From NCBI GenBank assembly GCA_966210615.1, contig CBIHLT010000003.1, positions 9 through 64,008 of the forward strand: a DNA stretch of 64,000 nucleotides, written 5' to 3'. Positions 12,145 through 63,428 of this stretch are shown here, piece by piece. The notes under the pieces are model-generated. The model made no database searches, was not told the DNA's origin, and saw nothing but the letters and a program-made list of their open reading frames with translations. Made by a program: the position numbers and the translations under genes. Source of the stretch: an uncultured Massilia sp. GTDB taxonomy: Bacteria; Pseudomonadota; Gammaproteobacteria; Burkholderiales; Burkholderiaceae_D. Each line of letters begins with the position of its first letter. The first letter of the stretch is position 1.

Positions 12145-14868
<2,724 letters not shown>

Positions 14869-14967
14869 GCGGGAAGATGCGAACGGGAAGCTGCGCGCGC
14901 GATACGGGGGATCAAGCCAGCCCCAATCGTGCGCGCCGCTCCTGTTGTGCGGAATACAATCTTCCGG

Positions 14968-15369
14968 ATGTGCGATACGATTCTATTGATCGAGGATAGC
15001 CAGCTCGATGCCGACCTCACGATCCTGGCTCTCGGTCAATGCGGGATCACGAACCCCGTCGTCCACGTCCCGGATGCGGAACAGGCCATCGCGCTGCTGG
15101 GCGCCACGGCAAGCGAGCCGGGTGCGCGCGACTTCGGCCTGATCCTGCTCGATGTGCGCATGCCCAAGATCGACGGCTTCGAAGTGTTGAAATTCATCCG
15201 CTCGGTCCCGCACCTGCAGGATGTCCCGGCCGTGGTGATGACCGAGGTGCCGGTCGAGGCCGACCGCATGCGCGCCTCCCTGCTGGGGGCGGCCAACTAC
15301 ATGGCCAAGGCGATGGGGGTGAGCGAATATTCCCAGCTGCTGCGCATCACCCTCACGCCCTTCATCTGA
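14968..15369 (+). CDS. Single-domain response regulator (orphan)
   Basis: ILLIEDS...LILLDVRMPKIDG...VVMT...YMAK: acidic pocket, phospho-Asp, Thr and Lys all present. Confidence 0.88.
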   Translation: MCDTILLIEDSQLDADLTILALGQCGITNPVVHVPDAEQAIALLGATASEPGARDFGLILLDVRMPKIDGFEVLKFIRSVPHLQDVPAVVMTEVPVEADRMRASLLGAANYMAKAMGVSEYSQLLRITLTPFI

Positions 15370-15854: not shown

Positions 15855-16826
15855 ATGCCTTTGCTGTTGCGCCGCCTTGCAGCGGGTCTGTCGTTCGTCT
15901 TCGCCCTGCCCCTGGCCGCCGCCGCCCAGCCGGCCGCCGACCATCACCAGCACCTGTTCAGCCCGGGCATCATCGAGCTGCTCAAGCCCGGTCCCACCGG
16001 GCCGCAGCCACTCCCGGCCGAGGACCTGGTCGGCTACCTGGACAAGGCCGGCATCCGGCGCGCGGCGATCATGTCGGTGGCCTACATGTATGGGCGCCCG
16101 TCGCGCGTGATCGAGGACGAATACGGCAAGGTGAAGGCGGAGAACGACTGGACCGGCGCCCAGGCGGCCAGGTATCCGGAGCGCCTGCGCGCTTTCTGCG
16201 GCTTCAATCCGCTCAAGGACTACGCGCTGGCCGAGCTGGAGCGCTGTGCCGCGCACAAGCAGCTGCGGCACGGGATCAAGATGCACTTCGGGAATTCGGA
16301 TGTGCAGCTGGACAAGCCGGAGCACATCGCCAGGCTGAAGGAAGTCTTCCGCGCCGCCAACCGCCACCGCATGGCGATCGCGATCCACCTGCGCGCCTCG
16401 ATCTCGCTCAAGCGCCCGTATGGCGAAGCCCAGGCGCGCGCCTTCCTCGAGCAGCTGATGCCGCTGGCGGCCGACATTCCGGTGCAGGTGGCGCACTTCG
16501 CCGGCGCCGGTCCGGGCTACGACGACCCGCCGGCCAACGAGGTCATGCGCGTCTTCGCCGAGGCGGCGGCGCGGCGCGATCCGAACACGCGCCAGTTGTA
16601 CTTCGACGTGGCCTCGATCGCCACGCCGGACATCACGCCGGAGCATGCGCGCGAGATGGTGCAGCGGATACGGATGGTGGGCGTCGACAAGGTGCTGTTC
16701 GGGTCGGATGCGGTCACGCCGACGAACATGCATCCGCGCGAGGCCTGGGCTGCGTTCACGGCCTTGCCGCTGACGAGGGAAGAGATCGAGCGCGTTGCCG
16801 CCAACGTCGCGCCCTATTTACGCTGA
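15855..16826 (+). CDS. Exported amidohydrolase-family protein
   Basis: Signal peptide, ADHHQH metal motif, GIKMH, AHFAG, VLFGSD. Confidence 0.88.
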   Translation: MPLLLRRLAAGLSFVFALPLAAAAQPAADHHQHLFSPGIIELLKPGPTGPQPLPAEDLVGYLDKAGIRRAAIMSVAYMYGRPSRVIEDEYGKVKAENDWTGAQAARYPERLRAFCGFNPLKDYALAELERCAAHKQLRHGIKMHFGNSDVQLDKPEHIARLKEVFRAANRHRMAIAIHLRASISLKRPYGEAQARAFLEQLMPLAADIPVQVAHFAGAGPGYDDPPANEVMRVFAEAAARRDPNTRQLYFDVASIATPDITPEHAREMVQRIRMVGVDKVLFGSDAVTPTNMHPREAWAAFTALPLTREEIERVAANVAPYLR

Positions 16827-48864: not shown

Positions 48865-49557
48865 ATGAGCCGCACAGGACGCCTTTTCCAACTGATGGAC
48901 GCCTTGCGCGGCAACCGCCGTCCCGTGACGGCCGGCGCCCTGGCCGAGCAGCTCGGCGTGTCCGAACGCACCATCTACCGCGACATCAAGTCCCTGGCCC
49001 AGCTCGGCGCCCCGGTCGAAGGCTCGGCCGGCGTCGGGTATATGCTGCGCACCGGCTTCTTCCTGCCGCCGCTGATGTTCGACAGCGACGAACTCGAGGC
49101 CCTGGTGCTGGGCGCGCGCTGGGTACGCCACCAGGGCGACGCCGCGCTGAGCACCGCCGCCGAGCGCGCGCTGGCCAAGATCGCCACCGCCACGCCGCGC
49201 GACCTGCGCGACCACATGGCCGACACCAGCCTGTGGGTGCCCGCCGGCCCCGAGCAGACCGGGCCGGATCCGTTCATCCAGCCCGCGCGCGAGGCGATCC
49301 GCCACCAGTGCAAGCTGCGCATCGACTACCGCGACGAGCAGGCCGCGGCGTCGCAGCGCATCGTCTGGCCCTTCGCGCTGGCCTTCTTCCAGGGCCGCCG
49401 GGTGCTGGCCGCATGGTGCGAGCTGCGCGGCGCGATCCGCCACTTCCGCATCGACCGCATCGTGCAGGCCGAGCCGAGCGCCGAACGCTACCCCACGCCG
49501 CGCCACCAGCTGCTGCGCCAGTGGCGCCAGGAATGCGGCATCCAGGAACTCTCCTGA
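48865..49557 (+). CDS. YafY-family HTH-WYL transcriptional regulator
   Basis: MSRTGRLFQL...VSERTIYRDI..L...GY.L..GFFLPPLMF...AAWCELR...RHFRIDRI. Confidence 0.95.
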   Translation: MSRTGRLFQLMDALRGNRRPVTAGALAEQLGVSERTIYRDIKSLAQLGAPVEGSAGVGYMLRTGFFLPPLMFDSDELEALVLGARWVRHQGDAALSTAAERALAKIATATPRDLRDHMADTSLWVPAGPEQTGPDPFIQPAREAIRHQCKLRIDYRDEQAAASQRIVWPFALAFFQGRRVLAAWCELRGAIRHFRIDRIVQAEPSAERYPTPRHQLLRQWRQECGIQELS

Positions 49558-50249: not shown

Positions 50250-51083
50250 CTAGGCACCCGCAAGCAAGGCCAGCCCCCATCCGACCAGCGCGATCCCGGC
50301 CAGGCGTGCAGCCAGCATGCCGGCCGGCCCCGTCTTCTCCAGCAACACCAGCAGCGCGAGCGCCGCGACCCATGCCAGGTTCATCGCGCCCACCACGAAC
50401 AGCACGAGCATGAGCGCCCAGCAGCAGCCCAGGCAATAGGCGCCATGGCGGACGCCCATCCGTATGGCTCCCAGCCTGCCGTCCCGCCAATGGGCCAGGA
50501 AGAAGCCGAGTGGACTGCGGCAATGGGCCAGGCAGGCCTGCTTGAACGGGCTCAGCTGATAGATCCCCGCCATGCAAAGGATGGCTGCGCTCAGCGGCGT
50601 ACTGGACGCCGCCATCGCCGGCGACAGCAAGGCGGCATTGTGCAGCGCCGCCTGCGCCAGGGCCGCCACGGCGCTGAAGCCGATCCATACCAGCGCATAG
50701 CCTGAACCGAACAGGAAACTGTGCGTCAACAGGGCCGCCTTGCCACGGCGCGCCTGGGCGCCGGCAAAGAGCAGGATGGCCGGCATGGCCGATCCGGCCA
50801 TCATGCCGACCATCATCACCGACCACATCAGGAAGCCCAGTCCCACGTCGGCCGGCGCGCAATGGGCGGCCATCGCTTCTTCCGGCGTGCCGGGCAGGAT
50901 CCGGCCATCGAGATAGAACAGATAGGCCCATGCCAGCGCCATGACGGCGACGATGCAGCCCTGGATCAGGACCTTGTCGCGTGCGGCCACCGGTGCGGCC
51001 GGTACCGGCGGCCAGGCGCCCGCGCCGTGGCGGACGTTTCCCAGCCTAAGCACCTTGCCAAGCAAAAGGCGCATATTGGCCAT
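50250..51083 (-). CDS. DUF2182 family metal-binding integral membrane protein
   Basis: W.VMMVGMM..P, YQLSPFKQACL.HCRSP, YCLGCCWALM..LF..G.MN...LEK. Start uncertain. Confidence 0.88.
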   Translation of the reverse strand: MANMRLLLGKVLRLGNVRHGAGAWPPVPAAPVAARDKVLIQGCIVAVMALAWAYLFYLDGRILPGTPEEAMAAHCAPADVGLGFLMWSVMMVGMMAGSAMPAILLFAGAQARRGKAALLTHSFLFGSGYALVWIGFSAVAALAQAALHNAALLSPAMAASSTPLSAAILCMAGIYQLSPFKQACLAHCRSPLGFFLAHWRDGRLGAIRMGVRHGAYCLGCCWALMLVLFVVGAMNLAWVAALALLVLLEKTGPAGMLAARLAGIALVGWGLALLAGA

Positions 51084-51672
51084 TGTTCTGTCCGCTGATA
51101 TCGTCCCATTTCAGTCCGAGCGCATCGACATGGCTGCGCGTGGCGCGCGCCAGCGCGAAGCGGTCGGCGGCCGGATGGCCCGTGTTGTCCAGGCAGATCG
51201 GTTCCGTGGCCCGGGGGTCCAGGCCCATCGCGCCCGCCGCCGCCATGTCGAGCCGGTCCGGGATCGTCACCGACCAGTTGTGTCCGTCGCGCTGGAAGCG
51301 AATGGAGGCGGTTTCGGTTCCCGCAAACCTTCCCACCAGTCCCGACAGCGCAGCAATGGGGCCGCCCGCACTGCCGCTGGCGATCGCCTCGATCGCCTCG
51401 CGCTGTTCCCGGCTGGCGTGTTCATCGACGATCAGTCCGATCGTCCAATTTCCTTTTGCCATTTCTTCCGGGGTCATCCCGAGCAGCGCAAATCCCAGCC
51501 CATCCAGCGGCAGCTCGCCGAAGCGGCCGCGCTCGACCTGGAAAGCCATGGCGAAGGTGCACGAGCCCTTGGTAGGCCTGGCCTGGAGCTGTCCCGGCAC
51601 ACAGGGACAAATGAAATCGCAACTGCAGGTCTCATAGTATTGACCGCTGATGTTCCATTCGGTATTGGCCAT
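51046..51672 (-). CDS. DUF1326 family protein
   Basis: W.ISGQYYETCSCDFICPC...PT.G.C, G.FG...LDGL, I.D..AS.EQR.A; paired with DUF2182. Confidence 0.88.
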   Translation of the reverse strand: MANTEWNISGQYYETCSCDFICPCVPGQLQARPTKGSCTFAMAFQVERGRFGELPLDGLGFALLGMTPEEMAKGNWTIGLIVDEHASREQREAIEAIASGSAGGPIAALSGLVGRFAGTETASIRFQRDGHNWSVTIPDRLDMAAAGAMGLDPRATEPICLDNTGHPAADRFALARATRSHVDALGLKWDDISGQNNGQYAPFAWQGA

Positions 51673-51760
51673 GATCGCCTCCCTTCCGCATCGCCACCGA
51701 TTCAGCATAGGCCACGCATCGCCCTTGCGCCAGCCCGCCTCGCGCTGCGGCGCCCGGGAC

Positions 51761-52516
51761 TCAGCTCCGGCTGAAATTGAAGCATCCGGCCGGCGCCATC
51801 GTGCCGCTCACCAGCAGCGCGCCATGCCGGTACAACTCCCGGCGCCGCTCTTGCGGCACCGCCACCACGACCACGCCCATCGTCCGGTCGCTCCAGAGCA
51901 GGCGTCCATCGACCGCATCGAGCGCGGCGAAGACATCGTTCGGGGTGGCGCCGGGACGGAAGACGACGGTGGCGCCCGCGTCCTGCCCTTCGGGCGGCTG
52001 CAGGGCCCAGGCCCCGGCGCCCGCGGTGGCCGCACAGAGCAGCAGCATGGCGGCGGGGGAGCCGCGCAGCTCCGGTCCGCCACGGCGCATCAGCCTCCAG
52101 CCTGCCAGCAGGGGCAACAGGCCGAAGACAAGCAGCCAGGCCAGGTCCCATGCGAGCGGATTGCCGCTGTCGACACGGATGCGGTGGATGCCGAGCAGCC
52201 AGTGCGACAGCACGGCGTCGACCACGTGCCAGGCGCCGAAGCCGATCAGCAGCGCACCCATCAGTGGCCAGCCCCAGCCAACACCCGTTCCCTGGCGCGC
52301 GCGCCACAGGCCCCACAGGCCGGCCAGCGCGACGGCATACATCAAGAGGTGGAAGTAGCCGTCCCACAGCACCTGGCTGCGCAAGTCCCCGATCCCGCGC
52401 ACCAGGCTGAGCAGGTGATGCCACTGCAGGATCTGGTGCAGCAGGATGCCGTCGAAGAAGCCGCCGAGCGCGAAGCCCAGCACGGCTGCCCATCTTGCCC
52501 AGCTCGATGTCCACAT
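51761..52516 (-). CDS. DUF2243 family membrane protein
   Basis: GFALGGFFDGILLHQILQWHHLLS, DGYFH, LLGIHRIR motifs. Confidence 0.85.
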   Translation of the reverse strand: MWTSSWARWAAVLGFALGGFFDGILLHQILQWHHLLSLVRGIGDLRSQVLWDGYFHLLMYAVALAGLWGLWRARQGTGVGWGWPLMGALLIGFGAWHVVDAVLSHWLLGIHRIRVDSGNPLAWDLAWLLVFGLLPLLAGWRLMRRGGPELRGSPAAMLLLCAATAGAGAWALQPPEGQDAGATVVFRPGATPNDVFAALDAVDGRLLWSDRTMGVVVVAVPQERRRELYRHGALLVSGTMAPAGCFNFSRS

Positions 52517-52775
52517 TGCATTGCTCCCTCTGCCATGCGTGAGGGACCAGTATAGAGAAAGCCTTCCGGCGGTGACGCGGGCTTTCGTGACGAACGGTAG
52601 AAACGCGGGTCAGGCTGCACCGGGCGGCCACGGCGAAGGCCGCCGCCCCGCTGTGTCATTTTGGTGACAATTGATGAGAAAGTGGAATTTCCCGTTTGCA
52701 ACAGGCCTATAATTAATCCTAATAAATTCAGAACGAAATCTGTTGGAACCCTCCCGGCGCCACGAGACCCGATCC

Positions 52776-54851
52776 ATGTTCGCTGCCCTGCACCGCGCTG
52801 CCGCGCAACCCCGAAGCCTCGCGCTGGCCGCGTCGCTCTGCGCCGCGCTGCATGCGGCGCCGGCGTATTCCGGCGATGGCGCGACGCTCACCCAACGCCT
52901 GGCCGATATCCGCGAAGTCAACCGCTTCGTCCCCGAGCGCGCCCTGCCGATGCTGCGGGCGATCGAGGCCGAAGGCCGCGCCGCGCCCCTGGCCGAACGC
53001 GCCGAATTCCTGAACCAGCTCGCCAGCGCCCAGTACGTGCTGGGCCACAACGAGGCGGCGCTGGCCACCACCGAAGAACTGATCGCGCTGGGCCGCGCGC
53101 ACAATGACAAGGTCGCGCTCGCAAAGGGCCTGCTGCGCAAGGGCTATATCGCATCGGGCGAGCACCGCCTGCCGGAGTCGCACCGCCTGATCCGGGAAGC
53201 GGAACAGCTGGCCAAGACCACCCAGGACTTCGACCTGCGCCTGCGCGCGCACATCTCCACCGGCGAGACCTATGCCGAGGAAGGCAACCTGCCGGCGGCG
53301 CTCGACCGCCTGCAGACGGCGGCGGCGCTGGCGCGCCAGGCCGGCGACCCGGTGCAGATCGTGATGACCCTGAATTCCCTGGCCCGCCTGTACGGCCTGC
53401 TGCGCGACCCGGAAGCGGGCCTGAAGGTGCTGGAGGAAGCCACCACGGCGGCGCTGAAGACGGATTCACCCGGCCGCATGGCCACGCTCAAGGACGCCGA
53501 GTACGGTCTGGCGATGGCCGCCCGGCAGTACCAGCGCGGCCTCATGGCGCTGCAGGACGCCCTGGCCCTGGAGCGCAAGATCGGCGCCCATTCGATGGTC
53601 GCCTATACCCTGGTGAACCTGTCGGACTGCTACCTGAAGCTGCACGACTACCGCAACGCCGCCAACTACGCCGAGCAGACCATCCAGGCGGCGCGCAAGC
53701 TCAACGACCGCGGCCTGGAAATCACGGCGCGCCTGAACCTGGGCCAGGCCTACATGGCGCTCGGGCGCCTGGTGGAAGGCAAGCGCCACATCGAGGCCGG
53801 CCTGGCGGGCTATGAAGACCTGGGCGACAAGCCCGAGCTGCAGGCCGTGCTGGAGGAATACGGCGCGGCGCTGGAGCGCGCCGGCGACCTGTCCGGCGCC
53901 CTGCACGCCTACCACCGCGAGCGCAAGATCTCCAACGAGCTGTTCGAGCAGCGCCGCCAGCAGGCCGTGCTCGACCTGCAGACCAAGTACGAGGCCGACA
54001 AGAAGCAGCGCCAGATCGAACTGCTGCGCAGCGAGAACCAGATCAAGTCGGCCGAGCTCGACAACCGCCGCCTGCAGCAGCGCGTCTGGTGGCTGCTGGC
54101 CGTGGTGTTCGCGCTGGCTTCCGCCGTGGTCGGCCTGCTGTACCGCAAGGTGCGCCACGCCAACGCCGCGCTGCACGAGAAGAACCGCGAGCTCAAGCAG
54201 CAGAGCGTGCGCGATCCGCTCACCGCCCTGTACAACCGCCGCCACTTCCTGGAGTTCATGCGCGGTGCTGCAGGACAGGGCGCGGGCGCGCACGGCCCGC
54301 GGGACGAGCAGGCCGGCGCCCTGTTCCTGCTCGACGTCGACCATTTCAAGCACATCAACGACACCTACGGCCACGCGGCCGGCGACACGGTGCTGACCGC
54401 GATCGCGGCCGGCCTGCGCGAGATCCTGCGCGAGACCGACATGATCGTGCGCTGGGGCGGCGAGGAATTCCTGGCCTACCTGCCCACGATCCCGGTCGGC
54501 GGGCTGGACGAAGTGGCCCAGCGCATCCTGAACGGCATCGCCTCCATCCGCGTGCCGTATGGCGAGGGCGAACTGACGGTGAACGTGTCGATCGGCTACG
54601 CCCCCTTCCCGATCGCGGTCGGGGGACAGGTGCTGCCGTGGGAACGCGCGGTCAACCTGGTCGACATGGCGCTCTACCTGGCCAAGTCGCACGGCCGCAA
54701 CCGCGCCTATGGCGTGCGCGGCTTCGCCGATCCGGAAAAGGCCTGCATCGACGAGATCGAGCAGAACCTGGAGCGCGCATGGCGCGCGGGACAGGTGGAC
54801 CTGTCCGTTGTGCTGGGCGAGTGGAAGGAATTGCGGATCGCCAGCGCATAA
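52776..54851 (+). CDS. Periplasmic TPR - TM - GGDEF diguanylate cyclase
   Basis: Signal peptide, TPR-like helices, TM VWWLLAVVF..., RDPLTALYNRR, DVDHFK.IND..GH..GD, RETD (I-site) five residues before GGEEF. Confidence 0.92.
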   Translation: MFAALHRAAAQPRSLALAASLCAALHAAPAYSGDGATLTQRLADIREVNRFVPERALPMLRAIEAEGRAAPLAERAEFLNQLASAQYVLGHNEAALATTEELIALGRAHNDKVALAKGLLRKGYIASGEHRLPESHRLIREAEQLAKTTQDFDLRLRAHISTGETYAEEGNLPAALDRLQTAAALARQAGDPVQIVMTLNSLARLYGLLRDPEAGLKVLEEATTAALKTDSPGRMATLKDAEYGLAMAARQYQRGLMALQDALALERKIGAHSMVAYTLVNLSDCYLKLHDYRNAANYAEQTIQAARKLNDRGLEITARLNLGQAYMALGRLVEGKRHIEAGLAGYEDLGDKPELQAVLEEYGAALERAGDLSGALHAYHRERKISNELFEQRRQQAVLDLQTKYEADKKQRQIELLRSENQIKSAELDNRRLQQRVWWLLAVVFALASAVVGLLYRKVRHANAALHEKNRELKQQSVRDPLTALYNRRHFLEFMRGAAGQGAGAHGPRDEQAGALFLLDVDHFKHINDTYGHAAGDTVLTAIAAGLREILRETDMIVRWGGEEFLAYLPTIPVGGLDEVAQRILNGIASIRVPYGEGELTVNVSIGYAPFPIAVGGQVLPWERAVNLVDMALYLAKSHGRNRAYGVRGFADPEKACIDEIEQNLERAWRAGQVDLSVVLGEWKELRIASA

Positions 54852-54895
54852 GCCGGCGCACCGTCTTTCGAGGGGCGGCGGGCTTCGCCGCCCGC

Positions 54896-55189
54896 CTATT
54901 TCTTGTCCTGCAGCTTCTCCCCCGCTTCCTCGACCTTCTCCCCGATCTTGTCCGTCGCCCTGTCCAGCCCGCGGCTGGCGTCGCGCGTCGCATCCTCGAC
55001 CTTCTCGCGCGCCTCTTCCGCGGCGCGGTCGGCCTTGGCCAGCTCGTCCTTCACCGTGTCCGACACCCGGGCGCCGGCCTCGTCCAGCACCTTGCCGGCC
55101 TTCTGCGCCGGGCCCATGTCTTCCTCGTTGCGGCCGCAGCCGGCCAGCACGACCAGCGCCAGCAGCGCGCCCACCATGCTCGTCTTCAT
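54896..55189 (-). CDS. Small lipoprotein (YtxH/late-embryogenesis-like helical)
   Basis: Lipobox LAGC; GPAQKAGK.LD...K.GEKVEEAGEK. Confidence 0.75.
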   Translation of the reverse strand: MKTSMVGALLALVVLAGCGRNEEDMGPAQKAGKVLDEAGARVSDTVKDELAKADRAAEEAREKVEDATRDASRGLDRATDKIGEKVEEAGEKLQDKK

Positions 55190-55261: not shown

Positions 55262-56059
55262 TCATTGCCCGCCGCGCGAGGGGTCGGCCAGCGGATGCTC
55301 GCGCCTGCCCTCGTCGATGCGCTGTTTCAGCGCCCGCGTCTCCGCGTCCTCGCCCCAGCGCCGCGTGAACGCCGCCAGGCGCAGGCGCGCCTTGTCGTAG
55401 TCATCGGCCTTGATCAGCTTCTGCACCGCCCCGCGCGTCTCGAACCAGGCCTCGCGGCGCTGCTCGGCGCGGGTGCAAGCCTTGGCCGCGTCGTTCAGGC
55501 GCCGCTGCACCTGGGTCAGCTGCTCGGCCGTCGCCCGCGTCTCGCGCAGCGCGATCAGCTCGTCCTGGGCCTCGCCCGCCTTGCATTCCTTGGCCAGGCT
55601 CACGGCCTTGTCCATACGGCGCTCGATCAGGGCCTTGGAGGGATTGGCCACCAGCCAGGCCAGCCACAGCAGGCCGAGGGCGAGCGCCCACCAGCGCAGG
55701 CGCACGGGCCGGCGCCCGGGCGGCTTGGCGCCGGGCGCTGCGCCGCCCGCGGCCCTGGCGCCCAGGCTGCTCTTCGCGGACGGTGCAGGAGCCGCCTGCG
55801 GCGCCGGTGCGGAAGGCGCAGCGGCGGGAGGTAGCGATGCGGGCGATGGCGGCCGTGGAGGTGGTGGCGGAGGCTGAGGAGGCGGCGCGGCTGCCGTGGC
55901 CGCAGCCATGCCCTCCCATGCCGCCCTGCCCGGCTGCGGCACAGGTGCAGGCGCCGCGCGCTGGGCCGTTCCGCACCACGGGCAAAAATTCACGGCGCGT
56001 GGAAAGCTCCGGCCGCAAGCGGCGTTGATGCATCGGTAGATCGCTTCGTTCTGAGCCAT
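55262..56059 (-). CDS. Zn-ribbon / Pro-rich / single-TM hypothetical protein (tubulin-like operon gene 5)
   Basis: CINAAC...CPWCG, PPPQPPPPPPRPP linker, TM LRWWALALGLLWLAWLVA, helical C-terminus; 9 nt after the tubulin-like gene. Confidence 0.8.
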   Translation of the reverse strand: MAQNEAIYRCINAACGRSFPRAVNFCPWCGTAQRAAPAPVPQPGRAAWEGMAAATAAAPPPQPPPPPPRPPSPASLPPAAAPSAPAPQAAPAPSAKSSLGARAAGGAAPGAKPPGRRPVRLRWWALALGLLWLAWLVANPSKALIERRMDKAVSLAKECKAGEAQDELIALRETRATAEQLTQVQRRLNDAAKACTRAEQRREAWFETRGAVQKLIKADDYDKARLRLAAFTRRWGEDAETRALKQRIDEGRREHPLADPSRGGQ

Positions 56060-56068
56060 GCGGTCCTT

Positions 56069-59000
56069 TTACTCCGGATCGGGAACGCCGTCGTCCGGAT
56101 CGGGGATCGCGGCGCCCAGCAGCGGCGCCAGCTCCGGCAGCGCGCCGACCGTGCTCCACTTGTCCAGTTTCGGGTTCCAGCGCATGTCCCACACCCGCGT
56201 GCCGGCCTCGATCTCGCCGCGCGCCGCCATCTGGGCCAGCTCGTCCTGCGTATAGGGGCCGCGCTGCGCACCCTGCAGGAACAGCTTGTAGCGGTTGAGG
56301 CCTGCCGGGGCGGGCATCGACGGCGCCCGGGCCTTGCGCTGCAGGACCTCGGCGGCCCGGTCGTCGCTGGCCAGGTAATCAGGCAGGATCACGCGCTTGT
56401 CCACCGGCCGCTCGACTTCCCAGCTGTAGGCATCGCCGGCCGAACCGGGCACGGTCTCGGTCCACTGCGCGATGCCGGACAGCGCGGTTTCGATCTGGCT
56501 GGGGGACAGGCCGGGGTCGGCGTTGGCCGCGCGCCGGATCCACTGGTCGTACAGCCGGCGCGCGGTGATGTTCGGCAGCGAGGGCGACGGCAGCTGGGCG
56601 CCGGTCTCGTCGACTTCGAGGCGCGGCTCGTACACGCGCAGCTGGTAGTGGCGCATCAGGGCCGCCAGCAGGGCCAGCTGGTGCGGCCCCATGCCGGCCA
56701 GGCGCGCCTGCACGGCGGCGATCACCTGTTCGCGGTAGTAGGACGGCAGGCCGTTGGAACGGATCGCGTACTCGTTGCCGATCTGGAGCCATTCGCCCGA
56801 TCCCGGCTCGACCTCGAACAGGTATTGCCCGCGCGGCTGGAAGCTCGCCTCGCGGTCCCCGAGGTCGGCCTTGCGCCGGATGACGCCCAGCGCGATCGCC
56901 TGCAGGTACCACTCGTAGTCGTCCGCCAGGCGGTTGAGCTCATCCATCGAGGGCGAGATCGGATGGCGGAAGCGGGTGGCGTCGAAATGCAGGTGGGTCG
57001 GGATCTTCGGGTTCTCGATCTGGTAGGAGGCGCGCCAGGTCGGCAGGCCGCGCAGCACCGTCATCGGGTAGCCCGACAGCTCGATGTAGCACACCGCGCG
57101 CCCAGTGAACCCGGTGTTGACGATGGAGACCAGGTCGCCGTGGAAGTACCCGGTCGGCACCGCCGCGCGCAGCTCCGCTTCCATCTTGCGCCAGGCGCCC
57201 ACGTCGCCCACCCCGATGAAGCACTTGAACTGGTCGGCCGCGGGCGTGAACTCGGCCGAGAAGCGCGCGTTCACCCAGGGCATCGCGCTGCGGATCCATT
57301 CGCCGAAGATGCGCTGGCGTTCCTGCGGGGTGAGCGCCCCCAGGCGTTCCAGCAGCGGGTCGACCGGTTCGGGCTGCTCCAGCTCCTGGCTGGACAGCTG
57401 CAGCTGGGCGCGGCGGAACAGCTTGAGCAGCAGCTCGGAGCGCAGGCGCTCGTCGCCCAGCTGCGGGAACAGGCGCGCCGAGCCGCCGAACTCCAGCAGC
57501 ACTTCCTCGCTCCAGGCGCTCACGTCTCCCGTCAGGCGCACCGGCGGCGGCGTGGTGTCGGCCGCCAGCTTGATATAGGTGGCGTGCTCCTGGCGCGCGT
57601 CGGCGCGCAGCTGGCTGATGCGCTGGTCGGCGGCCGCCAGCATGGCCTGCACCTGGCGCCGGCCTTCCTGGAATTCGCCGGCGATGCCGCTCCATTGCGC
57701 CTGCCCGTGCTGGTCGGTGCTCTGCGGGTCGCCCAGCCAGGCCGACATGCCGCGCATGACCTCGATCGACTGCCCGGCGGACACCGCCAGCAGGTGGAAG
57801 CGCAGGTAGTCGGCGATATCGCGCTTGAGGTGGTTCATCACTTCCCGCGCCTGGGCCTCCTTGCCGAACATGCGCCCGGACGCCTGCGACAGGTTGTTCA
57901 GCGATTCCTCCACCTGGCGGGTGCGCAGCGCGTCGCGGATGTCGCGGTAGCGGCGGCCGTTGCGCTCGGCGTTGGCCAGGTCGCGCTGCAGCAGGCGCGC
58001 CTTGACCTGCTCCAGCAGGGAAAGCACGAATTCCAGCCCGCCCTGCTTGCGGTCGTCGAGCAAGGCGTACAGGCGGTCGCGCACCCGGGTCTTCAGGCGG
58101 CCCAGCAATTCGCCGGTATGCCGCTTGATGCGGTCCTCGCTGGTCTCGGCGGTGGCGCCGGCCTCGCGGATCGCGTCGCGCTCCAGGTTGGGCAGCAGCT
58201 CGGCCACCTTCTCGCGCCACAACGGGATCTCGTAGGAGGCCATGATGCGGTCCATCTCGAGCTGGACCTTGCTCTCGACGCGCTCGAGCAGCGAGCGGCC
58301 GTCGCGGTCCAGCAGCAGGGTATTGGTGAGCGCGTATTCGGGGAAGGCGGTGACGTCCACGGTCCCCTTGCGGAAGTCCGGGAATTCGTCGAAGGGCCGC
58401 TCGGCCATGTCCATCTGCTCGCGCATGAAGCTGTCGCGTTCCTGGTCGCCGGCGCGCCGCGCAGCCGTCCCGTCGGTACTGACCAGCCCGAAGAAGGCCT
58501 TCACCATCAAGCCGGCCAGTTCGTAGGCGCGGATGTCCTCGGCCAGGCTTTGCTGGGTGTCGAGCACCGACTGCCCGAAGGCCGAGTACACCCTGGAATA
58601 CGAGAGGCGCATGTCGCCGAAGCGCGCCTCGGGCACCTTGGGGTTGTAGGGGCCGAGCTTGTGCTGCTGCTGGTTGACCGCCACCGAGCGCTTGCGGTTG
58701 GCGAAATCGGCCGAGGCGAAGTCCTCGAACAGGGTGTCGGCCACCATCTGGTACACGTCCTTGACGTCCAGGGTGGCCTTGTTGGCCAGGTTGGCGGTGT
58801 CGACGAAGTAGACGTCGTCGAAGGGCGTGCCGGTGCCCGCGATGCTGTCCGGCTCCATCCAGTGCACGCGCGCGTTCATGTCGCGCATGGCCGTCTCCAG
58901 CTCCATCAGGGTGGCGTAGGCATTGGCTTCGGTGCGCTCCTTGTTGGCCTTGGCGTAGCCCGAGGGCATGAACAGCACCAGGTCGACCTGGCTGTCCGAG

Positions 59001-59689
59001 ACTTCCTGGCGCGCGATGGCCTTGGACAGCCAGCCCAGGTCGATCGCGCTGCCGGCGCCGGTGCCGCCGGCGGCGGAAGCGATGACGACGATGCGGAACT
59101 TGGAGGTGTCGACCTGCAGGCCGAGGCGCTGGTAGTTCTCCTTGCGCTCGATGCCCGCGTTACTGCTCAGGAAATTGAGCGCGCCCTTGATGCGGCCGCG
59201 CAGCTTCGGGTACTTGTCGAACAAGTACAGCCGCGCCAGCGCGCGGATCTGCCCCGCGCCCTTGGACGGATCGATGCCCAGCGAACGCAGCTTCTTGGGA
59301 CGCAGCGGCATCCAGTTCTCGATCAGCGGGAAGCGCGCCAGGCTGTCGTCGGACTCGTGGTACTGCGGCAGGTCGAGCGGTTCGACCAGGCGCTCCTCGT
59401 CGCTCAGGCGCACCAGCTCGTACCAGGGGTCGGTGCGCTGCGACTTGCCTTCGTCGATCACGGCATTGCTGTCGAGGTCGAAGTGCAGGAAGCGCGCCAC
59501 CGGGAAGTCGCCGATGGATTCCACCCGGGTCGGATGGTGGCGGTTCCACACGGCCGACAGGATGCGGCGGCGGATGCGCATCATCACTTCCATGCCGGTG
59601 CCGCCGGCGCCGATGAACAGCGTGGGCCGCAGGTCGACCTTGAGCTCGGTCTTGGCGCCCAGGCTGCCGGGTTTGGGGAAATCTGCCAT
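56069..59689 (-). CDS. Tubulin/FtsZ-like GTPase (Tubulin_2/FtsZl1-type) with a long helical region and a C-terminal GYF_2-like domain
   Basis: IGAGGTG (T1), KGAGQIR (T3), SAAGGTGAGS (T4 signature), ANAYA, DDVYFVD. C-terminal GAQRGPYTQDEL...GEI...TRVW.......W. Confidence 0.88.
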   Translation of the reverse strand: MADFPKPGSLGAKTELKVDLRPTLFIGAGGTGMEVMMRIRRRILSAVWNRHHPTRVESIGDFPVARFLHFDLDSNAVIDEGKSQRTDPWYELVRLSDEERLVEPLDLPQYHESDDSLARFPLIENWMPLRPKKLRSLGIDPSKGAGQIRALARLYLFDKYPKLRGRIKGALNFLSSNAGIERKENYQRLGLQVDTSKFRIVVIASAAGGTGAGSAIDLGWLSKAIARQEVSDSQVDLVLFMPSGYAKANKERTEANAYATLMELETAMRDMNARVHWMEPDSIAGTGTPFDDVYFVDTANLANKATLDVKDVYQMVADTLFEDFASADFANRKRSVAVNQQQHKLGPYNPKVPEARFGDMRLSYSRVYSAFGQSVLDTQQSLAEDIRAYELAGLMVKAFFGLVSTDGTAARRAGDQERDSFMREQMDMAERPFDEFPDFRKGTVDVTAFPEYALTNTLLLDRDGRSLLERVESKVQLEMDRIMASYEIPLWREKVAELLPNLERDAIREAGATAETSEDRIKRHTGELLGRLKTRVRDRLYALLDDRKQGGLEFVLSLLEQVKARLLQRDLANAERNGRRYRDIRDALRTRQVEESLNNLSQASGRMFGKEAQAREVMNHLKRDIADYLRFHLLAVSAGQSIEVMRGMSAWLGDPQSTDQHGQAQWSGIAGEFQEGRRQVQAMLAAADQRISQLRADARQEHATYIKLAADTTPPPVRLTGDVSAWSEEVLLEFGGSARLFPQLGDERLRSELLLKLFRRAQLQLSSQELEQPEPVDPLLERLGALTPQERQRIFGEWIRSAMPWVNARFSAEFTPAADQFKCFIGVGDVGAWRKMEAELRAAVPTGYFHGDLVSIVNTGFTGRAVCYIELSGYPMTVLRGLPTWRASYQIENPKIPTHLHFDATRFRHPISPSMDELNRLADDYEWYLQAIALGVIRRKADLGDREASFQPRGQYLFEVEPGSGEWLQIGNEYAIRSNGLPSYYREQVIAAVQARLAGMGPHQLALLAALMRHYQLRVYEPRLEVDETGAQLPSPSLPNITARRLYDQWIRRAANADPGLSPSQIETALSGIAQWTETVPGSAGDAYSWEVERPVDKRVILPDYLASDDRAAEVLQRKARAPSMPAPAGLNRYKLFLQGAQRGPYTQDELAQMAARGEIEAGTRVWDMRWNPKLDKWSTVGALPELAPLLGAAIPDPDDGVPDPE

Positions 59690-59725
59690 ATCGATTCTCT
59701 TTCCGTGTACTTGATTCGGCCTGCC

Positions 59726-60184
59726 TTAGCGGCGGCCGGTGAACAGCGCCGCGACCAGGGCCACCACCCCGACGATGACCAGCGGCCCCATGACCCCGAA
59801 GCTCAGGTAGCGGCTGGCGTTGATGATGGCCAGCACCGCCGCCGCGGACAGGAAGCCCAGCCCGATGAACAGCAGCCAGCCCGCCGTGCCGGCCGACGAG
59901 GGCGCCACGCGCCGCACCACCAGGTGGTGCACGAAGGCGTTCCGCACGAAGAAGTAGACCACCAGCAGGATCACGAACACCACGGCGCCGATCGCCAGGT
60001 CGCGCGTCGAGGTGTCGGTGGCCGGCGGCATGTCTTGCGTGCCCGGCACCACCTCCACCGGCCGGCCCGCCGTGTCCGGCGCGGTCCGCGGCAGCGTGTC
60101 TTGCGGCGAGGCCGATTCCTCGGGCAGCTTGAAGCCGGGATCGGCGGGCGACGGCGCGGCGGGTGGCTGGGTTCCTTGCATCAT
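59726..60184 (-). CDS. Pro-rich N-terminus, three-TM membrane protein (operon gene 3)
   Basis: Disordered Pro/Thr-rich first 60 aa, then three hydrophobic segments; gaps of 12 and 36 nt to its neighbours. Confidence 0.8.
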   Translation of the reverse strand: MMQGTQPPAAPSPADPGFKLPEESASPQDTLPRTAPDTAGRPVEVVPGTQDMPPATDTSTRDLAIGAVVFVILLVVYFFVRNAFVHHLVVRRVAPSSAGTAGWLLFIGLGFLSAAAVLAIINASRYLSFGVMGPLVIVGVVALVAALFTGRR

Positions 60185-60196
60185 GGTCCTCTCGTC

Positions 60197-61717
60197 TTAG
60201 CGGCCGAGCCTGACCTGCGCGCCTTCGCGCAGGTCCAGCAGCTGGTGGCCGAACAGGGTGGTCTTGAGCTGGGCGACCTGCTGCCCGGCCTTGTCGTAGA
60301 TCGGCTGCGTGGTGCCCGGCCGCGCGCGCATGGTGCGCAGCTCGTCCTCCACGGTGAGGTGGGCGAGGCGCGGACGGGCGTAGGCGTAGGCCGCGGCGCC
60401 CGCCGCCGCCAGCAGCGCCAGCCCCGCGCCGCCCAGGGCGAGCAGCGGCCCCATGCCATAGTGCACGCGCACCTCGACCGGCAGCACGGCGGTCGAGGCC
60501 TGCACGCGCGCGGGCGGAATGAAGATGTCCGGCAGCGGGTCGCCCGGGAACAGGTCCGCCATGCGCTGGCGGAAGGCTTGCGACAGCTCCAGCTTCTGGT
60601 TCGCCAGGTGCAGCTGGATGGTCCCGGGCAGCACATAGGCCGAGCCGGCCGACTTCATGGCCTCGAGCGACCATTTGTCGGGGATCTGCGCCACCGGCAG
60701 GGTCATGGTCGAGCCCAGCGGGGCCGGCCTGCCCGGCGCCAGCGCGCTCACGCGGCTGCCGGCGAGCGTGATCGGGCGGTCCTCGCCGCCCAGCACGGAA
60801 CGCGCGCTCAAGGTGGCCGAGGAAATCGTGTACGGATACATCGTGTTCTCGAGATTCCATTCGATGCGCGCCGTGGGCTGGCGCGCGTCCGGCGCCACGT
60901 CGGCGCGCAGCACGCCGTTGGGCGCGGTGGCGAAGCGCACGCCCGCCGCGTTCTCCACCTTGCGCGGGGCCAGGCGCACCGTGTCGCGGTCGAGCGGCTT
61001 GAGGCGCGCGGGCGGTTCGGTGATCACGCGCTCGACGCGCCCGGCGGCCAGCAGCGCGTCGAGCGCCCTGCTCCCTTCGGCGCCGGCGGCGAAGGCGTAC
61101 ACCATCAGGCCGTTGGCGCTGTAATGCTCGCCCTTGACCGGCATGCGCAGCGGGAAGGCGAGCGCCTTGGCGATCGCCGCGCCGCCGTGGATCAGCTGGT
61201 AGAACTCGCGGTTGCGCGCCGCCGTGGCCTGGTCGTTGTTGGGGCTGTTGCGGTTGTTGGTGAACAGCCAGACGATGCCCGGCTTGCCGCCCAGCGCCTG
61301 GCTGAGGGCGGCCTGCACCGCTTCGCCCAGGTCGGTGTCGGCCAGCGCGCGGCTGCCCGGCTTGCGCGCGGTCTCGAGGCCGCGCAAGGCCTGCGTGATT
61401 CTTTGCGCGGAGTCCTGGCCCGCCTTGAACGACAGCAGCGCCCGCGGCGAAGGCGCGCCCGGCAGCGACTGGTTGAAGGCGGCCAGCACCACCGCCTCGC
61501 CCGGCTGCACCACGCTGCCCGCCAGCGCGCCCACCAAGGGCTTGAACTGCGATTGCGGGTCGCTGTAGAAAGGTTCCATCCAGCCGGAATTCTGGACCAG
61601 GAAGACGTGCGGGATGGCGAAGGCCCAGGCGGGAAAGCCGGCCAGGAAGATCGCCAGGGCGGCCGCGGGCAGCATGCGCGCGAGCTTCGGCAACCGCGTG
61701 GGGAATGGCGTCCTCAT
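60197..61717 (-). CDS. Exported, C-terminally anchored vWA-like protein (operon gene 2)
   Basis: ATG 61717 overlaps the upstream stop. Signal peptide to AWAFA, VFLVQNSGWM (MIDAS-like strand 1), DTDLGEA, WLFTNN, TM LLALGGAGLALLAAAG. Confidence 0.75.
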   Translation of the reverse strand: MRTPFPTRLPKLARMLPAAALAIFLAGFPAWAFAIPHVFLVQNSGWMEPFYSDPQSQFKPLVGALAGSVVQPGEAVVLAAFNQSLPGAPSPRALLSFKAGQDSAQRITQALRGLETARKPGSRALADTDLGEAVQAALSQALGGKPGIVWLFTNNRNSPNNDQATAARNREFYQLIHGGAAIAKALAFPLRMPVKGEHYSANGLMVYAFAAGAEGSRALDALLAAGRVERVITEPPARLKPLDRDTVRLAPRKVENAAGVRFATAPNGVLRADVAPDARQPTARIEWNLENTMYPYTISSATLSARSVLGGEDRPITLAGSRVSALAPGRPAPLGSTMTLPVAQIPDKWSLEAMKSAGSAYVLPGTIQLHLANQKLELSQAFRQRMADLFPGDPLPDIFIPPARVQASTAVLPVEVRVHYGMGPLLALGGAGLALLAAAGAAAYAYARPRLAHLTVEDELRTMRARPGTTQPIYDKAGQQVAQLKTTLFGHQLLDLREGAQVRLGR

Positions 61718-63207
61718 CACGCGAGCTCGTCCAGCCGCCAGCCGCGCATCTGGTTCCAGTCGGGATGGTGCAGCCACAGGCAGTTGTCGTAGACCAGCGG
61801 CACGCAGGCTAGCGGCCGCGCCAGGCGCGCGATCTCGTCCAGGATCACGTTGCGGCGGCCGATCCATTCGACCGTCACGCGCTGGATCACACGGTCCTCC
61901 AGGGCGTCTTCGGCGCGGCCGGTGTACTTGTGCAGGCGCAGCACCAGTCCGCTCGGCTGGCTGCGGTTGTTGTTGAAGCTGCGCAGCAGCGGCACCACGA
62001 GCGTATCGTCCTGGCCCTGGTCTTCGACGTGCTCGGCCGACCATGGCTCGTCCACCACCGGATGGCCGCGGCGGAACAGGAAGTTGGCGAAGCCGAGGCG
62101 CGCGCCGTCGATGCCGACCCGCTCCGGCTGCTCCGCACCCAGTTCGAGGAAGGAATAGCCCTGGCCGTCATGGCCGATATGCCACAGGCGCCCGTCGCGG
62201 CTCTGGGTCGGCCCGCCGAAGGCCAGGCGCGGCTGCCATTCCGGCGGCCAGGGCAGGAATTGCGGCGCGTCGCCGGGGCGCCAGGCGAGCTGCCCCGCTT
62301 CGTGCAGCCAGCACAGGCGGCCGTCGTAGCCGAAGGGACGCGACCAGCCGGCCGCCGGCAGATCGGGGCAGGCATATTGCTGCGCCTCGCCCAGGTCGGT
62401 GCGGGCGCTCCACAGGTGCACATTGCCCGGCGCGCCGACCAGGCAGGCCAGGTGGCGGCGCATGATGCCGGGCGCGGCCAGCACCGGCGCGTCGAGTACC
62501 GGTTCAAGGCGGTAGGTTTCGCTCAGCGGGTTGATCCACAGGCGCTGCAGGCCGGCGGCGGTCGGGACCAGCCCCACTTCGCCGCGCCTGCCCCCGTCGC
62601 CGCCCTCGGCGGGCAGCCATGCATATGCCGATGCCGTGAAGGCCAGGCTGCCGGCGCCGTCCTCGGGCGCCAGCACGTGCCACAACTGGGCCAGCGGGTC
62701 CCAGTATTGCAGCACGCCGCGGGCAGGCGCCAGCGCCAGCAGGCGCTGCTCGGGAAAGCCATAAGCGGCGGCGGCAAACACGCACCATGCATTGGGCGGC
62801 GCCGGCATGCCGCGCTCGGCCCGGCCCACCTGCGGCGCGGCGGGCCGCTCTTCCAGGCTGTCGCCCAGCGCCAGGGAGGTGACCGGCAAGCCATGCGGCA
62901 CATGGCGCGGGAGCGACTGGTCCGCGCCCGGCCCCCACCAGCCGGGCTGGCGCGCAGGCTGGCCGTTCAGGCGCTGCAAAGGCCGGCCGCAATGCGGGCA
63001 ATGGGCGAAGCCTTCGGGATAGATGGGCGCACAGCCGCAGCCCGCCGGCAGCGAGGCGCCGAGCAGGCGCGCGACGTCCGGCAGGCGCGCGCCTGCATGG
63101 GACTGCCAGTCGATGCGTCCCAGGCCCTCGGTGGCCAGCAGTTCGAACTGCCCATTCTTCTCGTCTTCCTGCCAGATGCTGGCAGGCGTTTCCCATCGGT
63201 AAGCCAC
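61717..63207 (-). CDS. Zn-ribbon-containing, Trp/Gly-rich beta-strand hypothetical protein (operon gene 1)
   Basis: GTG start at 63207 after GGGAG; CGC...CPHCG; repeated short beta/WxP units. Confidence 0.75.
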   Translation of the reverse strand: MAYRWETPASIWQEDEKNGQFELLATEGLGRIDWQSHAGARLPDVARLLGASLPAGCGCAPIYPEGFAHCPHCGRPLQRLNGQPARQPGWWGPGADQSLPRHVPHGLPVTSLALGDSLEERPAAPQVGRAERGMPAPPNAWCVFAAAAYGFPEQRLLALAPARGVLQYWDPLAQLWHVLAPEDGAGSLAFTASAYAWLPAEGGDGGRRGEVGLVPTAAGLQRLWINPLSETYRLEPVLDAPVLAAPGIMRRHLACLVGAPGNVHLWSARTDLGEAQQYACPDLPAAGWSRPFGYDGRLCWLHEAGQLAWRPGDAPQFLPWPPEWQPRLAFGGPTQSRDGRLWHIGHDGQGYSFLELGAEQPERVGIDGARLGFANFLFRRGHPVVDEPWSAEHVEDQGQDDTLVVPLLRSFNNNRSQPSGLVLRLHKYTGRAEDALEDRVIQRVTVEWIGRRNVILDEIARLARPLACVPLVYDNCLWLHHPDWNQMRGWRLDELA

Positions 63208-63428
63208 TTCCACTCCCGTTCGCATGCCATGTGATTTGCCGAAACAAAGCCTGTCGAGGCCGTTGTTGTTGATCAAATCATAGCGCCGCCACCTGCCGCG
63301 CGGCGCGCCGTTCACGGGGTAGCATGCAGTGATACTGCCGGGATCAAATAGCGGGCCGTTCAGCGGAACTTCCGGGCCGAAACCGTATAATGACGGGCTG
63401 GATACTCCCTGGCTTGCCGACTCTCCCC

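Follow-up and report, generated by a model that had tools for sequence, protein, structure and literature searches.

Within the tubulin/FtsZ superfamily, FtsZl1 proteins (Pfam family Tubulin_2) are the branch that has diverged most, and they are widespread; operons which combine them with vWA-containing proteins were predicted in 2010, and membrane remodelling was proposed as their function (Makarova and Koonin, Biol Direct 5:33, PMC2875224). Other described systems that come close in part are the GAP1-N2 tubulin conflict systems (Kaur, Burroughs, Iyer and Aravind, 2020, eLife 9:e52696, PMC7159879), GltJ (AgmX) of the Myxococcus xanthus Agl-Glt gliding machinery (Attia et al., 2024, Sci Adv, PMC11135422; structure 7z3c) and the tubulin homologues TubZ and PhuZ. 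Here we describe a cassette of five genes, A to E, followed by a lipoprotein gene, which is located on 64,000 nt of the Massilia contig CBIHLT010000003.1 (G+C ~70%; closest public proteins named Massilia or Telluria; this whole stretch is called the window below) and is centred on gene D for a giant FtsZl1 protein. A cassette of the type A-B-C-D-E-lipoprotein, with a GYF tail on the FtsZl1 protein, a putative vWA relative with a dead metal ion-dependent adhesion site (MIDAS) and a zinc (Zn)-ribbon/proline-rich partner, is a distinct FtsZl1 variant.

Compared with the FtsZl1 operons predicted in 2010, the similarities are evident: protein D scores far above the PF13809 threshold and displays the T1 and T4 loops and a long helical extension, the partners are membrane and exported proteins with one apparent vWA relative among them, and normal FtsZ is also encoded in the genome. 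The cassette differs, on the other hand, in that a P-loop GTPase, a Ser/Thr kinase and an OmpA gene are missing, in that its putative vWA relative has lost the MIDAS residues and matches no Pfam model, and in its previously unnamed partners, A, C, the Zn-ribbon/proline-rich protein E and the lipoprotein, as well as in the GYF_2 tail of D. While the analysis of 2010 could not detect a tubulin-like C-terminal domain, the structural model of D shows one. Six genera tested against the FtsZl1 lists of that study, Methylobacterium, Rhodoferax, Acidovorax, Stenotrophomonas, Azoarcus and Pseudomonas, are absent from them.

The GAP1-N2 systems share with the cassette a tubulin homologue with a helical C-terminal extension and its link to a membrane-anchored protein with an extracellular vWA-type domain, and GYF domains occur in some related systems (PMC7159879). 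In contrast, the GAP1 GTPase, FNIII-repeat proteins and a second vWA/YtkA protein are not part of the cassette, which belongs to the core gene set within a proteobacterial genus, whereas the GAP1-N2 systems reside in Firmicutes and Actinobacteria. Membership in this group was considered and rejected, as neither the GAP1-type GTPase nor FNIII proteins were found by Pfam among A-F and the flanking genes. GltJ resembles the cassette in its Zn ribbon, flexible linker, GYF_2-type domain, transmembrane segment and periplasmic domain, but in the cassette the Zn ribbon (on E) and the GYF domain (on D) are on separate proteins, the GTPase is of the tubulin type and not a Ras-like MglA, and homologues of Agl/Glt, MglA/MglB and AglZ are not linked to it; the resemblance is at the domain level only. 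TubZ and PhuZ, finally, are the best structural matches of the N-terminal 400-odd residues of D at ~10-14% identity; D is three times longer and is encoded together with membrane proteins, with no TubR/tubC-type partner and no plasmid or phage context.

A first-pass annotation of the window had proposed a five-gene operon around this GTPase as an uncharacterised system. A real and conserved gene cassette and the FtsZl1 assignment have stood up to analysis, and the cassette was encountered in no paper found and in no library of defence models; on the other hand, the restriction to exactly five genes, the vWA status of protein B and the zinc ribbon of protein A as a family trait have to be revised, as set out below.

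Protein D, a tubulin-like putative GTPase with a GYF tail

Protein D matches Pfam Tubulin_2 (PF13809, FtsZl1) with an E-value of 1.6e-48 and 166.2 bits (cut-off 27) over residues 24-393, corresponding to model positions 1-352 of 356, and scores 170 bits in a search of the whole genome; its C-terminal residues 1139-1187 match Pfam GYF_2 (PF14237; E 1.2e-8, 35 bits, cut-off 25.8). Hydropathy analysis gives no transmembrane segment for D, and a solved structure was not detectable by single-sequence search. An AlphaFold2 model built on an alignment of 72 homologues translated from fetched loci reached a mean predicted local distance difference test score (pLDDT) of 85.2 and a predicted TM-score (pTM) of 0.72. 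When compared with the Protein Data Bank (PDB) by Foldseek, this model finds TubZ (2xka) as the best match (E 2e-4, probability 1.0, 375/399 columns), followed by alpha-, beta- and gamma-tubulins, while phage FtsZ, tubulin and PhuZ are on top among viral models. Overall, the structural matches have E-values of 7e-5 to 2e-3 at probability 1.0 with ~375-400 aligned columns, nearly the whole target. TM-scores are modest (0.31-0.44 on target) and the root-mean-square deviation is high, so that the domain arrangement of D differs from that of known superfamily members.

On this model, D has a tubulin/TubZ-like fold. As the alignments span almost the entire TubZ/tubulin body, D is predicted to hold both tubulin domains, including the C-terminal one which had not been established by the sequence analysis of 2010. 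The initial description of D as a giant 1206-residue protein with a tubulin signature, of the FtsZl1 type, is borne out by Pfam and by the confident model alike, and the prospect raised with it that the large protein might not adopt a tubulin fold did not materialize. Beyond the tubulin-like body, the model and the family alignment outline a helical stalk, a conserved alpha/beta region and the GYF adaptor domain (Table 1).

Among the GTP-binding loops, T1 (IGAGGTG, residues 26-32), a T3-like loop (KGAGQIR, 143-149) and the T4 signature (AAGGTGAGS, 206-214) were recognized. Residues G208, G209, T210, G211 and G213 of T4 are invariant in the 72 homologues, and G29, G30 and G32 of T1 are at least 90% conserved. 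The loops are intact by sequence, and GTP hydrolysis and polymerisation by D are predictions.

Whether D polymerises at all separates the reading preferred here from one in which it is part of a transmembrane signalling or adaptor complex. In the latter case, a non-polymerising D would be a GTP-dependent switch or scaffold, in the manner of a large regulatory GTPase, which relays a binding event in the periplasm, at B or E, to A or to GYF-bound proteins without mechanical work on the membrane. Such a role is in line with the report that the T6-H7 elements and the C-terminal domain of FtsZl1 were unidentifiable in 2010, with filaments possibly not formed, and with the proposal of a reviewer of that paper that transport or signalling may be involved (PMC2875224); the T7-like acidic residue of D is poorly conserved, Zn-ribbon and GYF modules constitute a molecular switch in GltJ (PMC11135422), and synteny of the cassette with a convergent TPR-GGDEF gene is seen in two genera. 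The structural model speaks against it, as D aligns with nearly the whole TubZ/tubulin body over 375-400 columns and the C-terminal domain is therefore present; all characterised members of the superfamily polymerise (PMC2875224), and the long helical stalk and the large conserved C-terminal region, as modelled, would resemble mechanochemical proteins more than switches. We regard a purely signalling role as improbable.

In five related genomes, G021 (C1:2931057-2934842), G013, G023, G194 and G090, the match to D is split into residues 1-1130 and the GYF tail, which follows ~200 nt further on in the same frame, indicating that a linker of ~60 aa is inserted before the GYF domain.

Distribution and common inheritance of the cassette

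Within the genus, D is present in 22/24 species at 70-91% identity (21 of them at 83-91%), and within the family it occurs in 11/64 sampled genera in two sequence classes of ~80% and ~44% identity. Outside the family, none of ~290 genomes sampled from the order had the cassette, which is a weak negative since only two candidates per genome were scored; the pattern-based locus scan described below was far more informative.

This distribution bears on the idea that D is part of an accessory division or cell-shape cytoskeleton which cooperates with FtsZ or replaces it under some conditions. Its membership in the tubulin/FtsZ superfamily would suit such a role, and the bitopic protein E, with a cytoplasmic N-terminal domain, a transmembrane segment and a periplasmic domain, superficially recalls membrane proteins that anchor cytoskeletons. 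A canonical FtsZ is nevertheless present, the cassette was found in 11 of the 64 sampled family genera and, within the limited sensitivity of that search, in none of the sampled order genomes outside the family, no division or elongation genes are linked, and D is devoid of the FtsZ C-terminal peptide, with no FtsZ_C domain reported by Pfam. A division role is thus very unlikely in our judgement. D as the FtsZ of the divisome itself was rejected, as neither Tubulin (PF00091) nor FtsZ_C is found in it by Pfam and the FtsZ_C genes are on other contigs. D is the only Tubulin_2 gene of the genome and canonical FtsZ is encoded elsewhere, in agreement with the early proposal that the locus is separate from the normal divisome. 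Two FtsZ_C matches of similar score were observed in the 355-contig assembly (C33:20121-20405 and C214:6467-6754), which could stem from an actual duplication, from strain heterogeneity or from minor contamination (given as 1.14% for the assembly).

A search of 1.84 billion representative proteins yielded relatives of D in 1605 clusters at 50% identity, dozens of which can be aligned with D along its entire length of ~1200 residues (29-46% identity). A pattern-based locus scan with a 43-sequence alignment, covering a single genome for each prokaryotic species, gave 80 loci from named organisms, which were annotated with iterative profiles for the lipoprotein and for A, B, C and E. Essentially all loci with a full-length D and enough flanking sequence show the order A>B>C>D, which was recorded in 59 loci. 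Hosts are found among Betaproteobacteria (Janthinobacterium, Duganella, Massilia, Acidovorax, Rhodoferax, Variovorax, Azoarcus, Azohydromonas, Paraburkholderia and Sideroxydans), Gammaproteobacteria (Thiodictyon, Methylumidiphilus, Stenotrophomonas, Pseudomonas and Endozoicomonas) and Alphaproteobacteria (Methylobacterium, Acetobacteraceae, Consotaella, Rhizobium and Caulobacteraceae), in deltaproteobacterial metagenome-assembled genomes (MAGs) and in Chlorobium; a fragmented Nitrospirota locus has the same genes. The cassette is therefore no speciality of the Oxalobacteraceae, and the chance that its genes would not co-occur in other genomes, which the first-pass annotation had named among possible refutations, has been dispelled by the same order in Chlorobium and several classes of Proteobacteria. 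In Ignavibacteria, Latescibacterota and Acidobacteria, the loci match the tubulin domain of D only and have other neighbours.

Gene E lies downstream of D in most loci, and a lipoprotein gene follows E in many or most lineages; the E profile misses divergent copies, some of which were found by eye. The Janthinobacterium-type locus may illustrate the arrangement, as the same order is observed at an identity of 25% for A, 41% for B and 47% for C, followed by an E-like Zn-ribbon/proline-rich/transmembrane protein and a 249-aa lipoprotein. When pairwise distances over the 59 loci are compared between A, B, C and D, the matrices correlate with r = 0.89-0.96, and the value for B and D was reached by 0/999 permutations. 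These four genes thus co-vary and share their inheritance. All five originally annotated genes are real, and the unit is better described as a four-gene core A-D plus E, usually plus the lipoprotein.

In the tree of D, the Oxalobacteraceae fall into three separate lineages while the remainder partly follows taxonomy, which implies that the cassette is passed on as one unit, vertically as well as by horizontal transfer. The patchy occurrence across classes and the three lineages within one family, indicative of horizontal transfer, can also be read as the signature of a conflict system directed against phages or other invaders, in which B would sense the invader or envelope damage, D would serve as threshold or effector scaffold and C would perhaps be a membrane-damaging effector. 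Precedents are the tubulin homologues linked to vWA proteins, some with GYF domains, which have been described as conflict systems (PMC7159879); a trypsin-like protease gene follows the lipoprotein gene in two alphaproteobacterial loci, and a regulator of the HTH-WYL type is encoded 6 kb away in the window. The components that define such systems, the GAP1-type GTPase, an FNIII-repeat protein, Hsp70 and a second vWA protein, were not found at the locus, however; PADLOC models match none of the five proteins, no toxic effector domain is recognisable in the cassette, and the described tubulin-containing systems sit in Firmicutes and Actinobacteria. The near-universal presence in the genus as a single copy at a syntenic chromosomal site among ordinary genes fits a housekeeping accessory better than a defence island, and a conflict function is considered unlikely.

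Several loci depart from the common pattern. In a few members of Massilia (G238 of the same genus, L024/L087 and Massilia niabensis, L058), another cassette lineage, either of the Janthinobacterium/Duganella type (~46% identity) or of the Noviherbaspirillum type, replaces the type of the window, which points to replacement or independent acquisition within one genus. Pseudomonas sp. MF4836 encodes a second, shorter Tubulin_2 and GYF_2 protein of 793 aa (L061:15476-17854) just downstream of the cassette lipoprotein gene; these two FtsZl1 paralogues recall the paired tubulin genes reported in Firmicutes systems. The trypsin-like serine protease genes of the two alphaproteobacterial loci (L076:~14200-15000 and L080:14084-14941; motifs TAAHV / TSAHV) come after the lipoprotein gene, and in L076 an E-like Zn-ribbon/proline-rich gene is located further downstream (16051-16734).

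Protein B, a putative vWA relative without a metal site

Protein B possesses a signal peptide (AFA-IPH), a beta-rich domain, a hydrophobic transmembrane segment at residues 425-443 and a cytoplasmic tail of ~60 aa. Three of its motifs follow the order of a vWA domain: LVQNSGWM takes the place of DxSxSM, ADTD that of the threonine loop and FTNN that of the TDG strand. All 24 diverse members of the B family examined share S, G and W as well as the two N of TNN, and the first motif position is Q or D. Instead of the MIDAS pattern DxSxS...T...D, B has residues Q-N-S-G-W, T and N. A single-sequence AlphaFold model of B was unusable (pLDDT 37).

Distant homologues of B, found with the B profile at E-values of 1e-44 to 1e-67, adjoin shorter FtsZl1 genes and keep DNSGS...T...D. 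One of them has sub-threshold matches to VWA_2 (E 1.3e-3) and VWA (E 1e-2). When the N-terminal domain of the B family was combined with these distant relatives and compared by hhalign with 25 genuine VWA_2 domains, which were taken from related genomes since none was found in the Massilia genome itself, a probability of 90% (E 1.5e-6) was obtained with the three motifs in register; with the core B family alone, the probability was 9%. Provisionally, B can be considered a vWA relative in which the MIDAS site is replaced by amide and aromatic residues, and the partner vWA-like domain of the cassette would have systematically lost its metal site. Of the exported vWA-like protein with a C-terminal transmembrane segment proposed at first, the signal peptide and the membrane segment were recovered in the sequence, while the domain, judged by profile-profile comparison, would at most be a relative of vWA whose metal site is dead.

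Four of the distant B homologues (L100:2673-4535, L105:370-2169, L108:7475-9310 and L110:7277-8896) immediately precede the shorter FtsZl1 genes; they come from Desulfonema magnum, Thermoanaerobaculia, a deltaproteobacterial MAG and Chloracidobacterium, respectively. Three of the four, the exception being Chloracidobacterium, end in long Gly/Pro-rich cytoplasmic tails, and the FtsZl1 partners do not have GYF.

Proteins E, A, C and the lipoproteins

Protein E starts with a cytoplasmic N-terminus which carries a C-x4-C...CPWC ribbon, continues with a proline-rich linker, which has 19 prolines within 40 residues, and one W-rich transmembrane segment, and terminates in a periplasmic helical part; ribbon, proline-rich linker and the single membrane segment are as initially annotated. 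All 15 diverse homologues compared retain the C...CPxCG core without change, and Pfam reports a weak match to DUF7575. Across homologues, the linker is usually very proline-rich and the periplasmic part variable and helical; according to a PDB profile search, the latter ends TPR-like in most lineages, and the E of the window is without that end.

With the GYF profile of the D family, the solved structure of the GltJ GYF domain from Myxococcus (7z3c) is matched at an E-value of 1.5e-11. This domain of GltJ binds a proline-rich sequence of AglZ with micromolar affinity, and GltJ as a whole, with Zn ribbon, linker, GYF domain, transmembrane segment and periplasmic domain, is a GTPase-controlled switch that connects an envelope-spanning machine with a platform in the cytoplasm; in many bacteria, Zn-ribbon and GYF modules are found together with ligands unknown (PMC11135422). 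Because the GYF tail of D resembles that of GltJ, the proline-rich linker of E is by analogy a plausible dock for it. In the loci surveyed, GYF is almost always present and the proline content of E varies, bearing in mind that divergent E copies escape the profile.

Protein A is soluble and Trp-rich, with no transmembrane segment by hydropathy, and has neither a Pfam match in 24 diverse family members nor a PDB profile match; all 120 listed public homologues are 'hypothetical' or nameless. The Cys ribbon CGC...CPHCG, which had led to the description of A as a Zn-ribbon cytoplasmic protein, is indeed present, but it is confined to the lineage of the Massilia window and is not a family feature. 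A is thus best described, from its sequence, as a putative cytoplasmic member of an orphan family. Protein C, for which no Pfam match was obtained, has an acidic, proline-rich N-terminal tail and three transmembrane segments by hydropathy, as had been noted before, and its charge distribution suggests a topology with the N-terminus outside and the C-terminus inside.

The lipoprotein position is occupied by F2, a lipoprotein of ~240 aa with only weak glycine-zipper matches, in most other lineages, and by the 97-aa F in the clade of the window. F also adjoins the cassette in another genus, where it is syntenic at 41% identity.

A putative envelope-spanning assembly

By their sequence features, A and D are cytoplasmic, whereas inner-membrane proteins are encoded by B, C and E, with periplasmic domains on B and E, and F or F2 is a lipoprotein. 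We propose that the cassette is a proteobacterial variant of the FtsZl1-vWA operons whose products build an envelope-spanning, nucleotide-switched assembly with a housekeeping role in the envelope, a reading in which we place about even confidence. The six proteins would join in one assembly, with D as a GTP-switched oligomer or polymer on the cytoplasmic face of the inner membrane. There, D may be recruited by the Zn ribbon and proline-rich linker, which form the cytoplasmic portion of E, and by the conserved 60-aa tail of B, and would assemble in a nucleotide-dependent manner; its state would be coupled across the membrane to the pseudo-vWA domain of B, the helical or TPR-like domain of E and the lipoprotein. 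Since the chemistry of the metal site is lost, the periplasmic domain of B is probably a protein-binding scaffold. The output would most likely be the remodelling or maintenance of the envelope, such as membrane shaping, vesicle formation or envelope repair, and neither cell division nor phage defence. Beyond domain identities and topology, we infer these steps from sequence and analogy, and the same applies to the envelope-spanning complex and the GTP-driven polymer proposed at the outset.

A number of observations weigh against this proposal. The vWA relationship of B is not reflected in Pfam, as 0/24 family members gain a match, including none of B to a VWA model, and PDB profile searches with the B family, whole or N-terminal domain, yielded nothing. 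The candidate T7 acidic residue of D, D359, is D/E in 58/72 close homologues and D in only 14/43 of a broader set, and its equivalence to T7 stems from a profile alignment by hhalign of the N-terminal half of D with 31 FtsZ sequences which has a probability of only 1.5%; T1, T3, T4, T5, T6 and T7 come out in plausible register, on which we do not rely. With respect to the recruitment of D, several E homologues are proline-poor although D keeps GYF, an E-like gene appears to be missing downstream of D in Methylobacterium, where GYF is present, and D homologues carry their own proline runs flanking GYF; these three observations argue against docking of GYF on E as the sole link of D to the membrane and weaken the case for such docking. 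The three Oxalobacteraceae lineages of D imply horizontal transfer as for accessory or conflict systems. Moreover, in the literature searched, no experimental work on any FtsZl1 protein was found sixteen years after its prediction.

In a bolder version, the cassette would encode a trans-envelope mechanochemical machine of Gram-negatives, in which D, with a dynamin-like layout of head, helical stalk, distal domain and adaptor tail, assembles on the inner membrane, docks there via the Zn-ribbon/proline-rich and GYF adaptors and passes force or state to the outer layers via the pseudo-vWA scaffold and an outer-membrane lipoprotein. Although we find this rather doubtful, such a machine could serve in vesicle shedding, in the repair of a damaged envelope or in the movement of surface components; it would provide the first function for FtsZl1 and, beside FtsZ and MreB, a third way for a cytoskeletal NTPase to act on the bacterial envelope.

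Three points are new with respect to FtsZl1, the tubulin C-terminal domain predicted in D, the vWA-like partner with an apparently lost metal site and the Zn-ribbon/proline-rich neighbour of the GYF tail, which echoes the GltJ switch. With four co-varying core genes and two frequent partners, the cassette is a compact version of these operons, and as its hosts, among them Janthinobacterium, Pseudomonas, Stenotrophomonas, Massilia and Methylobacterium, are culturable and genetically tractable, FtsZl1 polymerisation, its effect on membranes and the GYF ligand become testable.

Organization of the locus and its surroundings

The positions of the genes and of the domains of D are compiled in Table 1. 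The length of A equals that of the public gene call P0391 (496 aa). Third-position GC amounts to 0.84-0.96 in the reading frames of A-E vs 0.40 in a spurious 5' extension of B.

Table 1. Coordinates of the cassette genes, the regions of protein D and the terminal hairpin in the window
Feature	Position (nt)	Strand	Description	Basis
Gene A	61717-63207	minus	496 aa from GTG start; first cassette gene	Open reading frame and codon bias
Gene B	60197-61717	minus	506 aa; exported bitopic protein	
Gene C	59726-60184	minus	152 aa; membrane protein	
Gene D	56069-59689	minus	1206 aa; FtsZl1 (Tubulin_2) GTPase-like protein	
D, residues ~20-460	58310-59632	minus	Predicted tubulin/TubZ-like two-domain body, alpha/beta	AlphaFold2 and Foldseek
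D, residues ~467-700	57590-58291	minus	Predicted stalk of long helices, including 552-604 and 611-652	Secondary structure of the model
D, residues ~701-1120	56330-57589	minus	Conserved alpha/beta region	Sequence matches no solved structure
D, residues ~1133-1192	56114-56293	minus	C-terminal GYF_2 adaptor domain	Pfam GYF_2
Gene E	55262-56059	minus	265 aa; bitopic Zn-ribbon/proline-rich/transmembrane protein	
Gene F	54896-55189	minus	97-aa helical lipoprotein	LAGC lipobox
GC-rich hairpin	54873-54896	.	Between F and the convergent TPR-GGDEF gene	

The five co-directional genes with gaps of -1, 12, 36 and 9 nt, as first annotated, were recovered with all reading frames and junctions. At the A/B junction TGATG, the TGA of A and the ATG of B have one base in common (1-nt overlap); the 12 nt between B and C contain the ribosome-binding site GAGAGGA, the gaps between C and D (36 nt) and D and E (9 nt) a purine-rich ribosome-binding site each, and F, at a spacing of 72 nt from E, has its own ribosome-binding site. 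Terminator-like hairpins are present at none of the junctions between A and F and occur only after F, where the GC-rich hairpin is likely a bidirectional terminator and the end of the transcription unit. From the short gaps, the ribosome-binding sites and the terminal hairpin, A-F are predicted to be a single, presumably co-transcribed operon. A sigma-70 consensus was not found upstream of A. Within the 180-nt divergent intergenic region, ~40 nt upstream of the start of A, a short hairpin followed by a T-rich stretch (63248-63261, minus strand) was observed, which is either a leader element or due to chance.

Pfam and NCBIfam searches reveal no kinase, MoxR, P-loop GTPase or OmpA gene among A-E, which extends the initial remark that a kinase and a MoxR AAA gene are missing from the operon; P-loop GTPase and FNIII domains are likewise absent from A-E (Pfam, NCBIfam) and from F and the flanking genes (Pfam). 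No family of PADLOC-DB 2.0 matches any of A-E at E <= 0.1, PHROGs give two negligible weak membrane-protein matches for E only, and NCBIfam adds nothing useful.

At a distance of 3-6 kb, an HTH_11 and WYL regulator, a PpoB2-type copper chaperone and a DUF2243 membrane protein are encoded (48865-49557, plus strand; 50250-52516, minus strand). Like the other flanking genes, such as those for a glutathione S-transferase (GST) and a hydrolase, these are ordinary neighbours and do not have the character of a defence island. The convergent gene at 52743-54851 (plus strand), which has the terminator hairpin in common with F, codes for a 702-aa diguanylate cyclase with TPR and GGDEF domains. Together with F and the gene upstream of the cassette, it is syntenic in another genus, with 58% identity of the GGDEF protein in locus L026; this synteny may hint at regulation related to cyclic di-GMP (c-di-GMP) or may be a coincidence.

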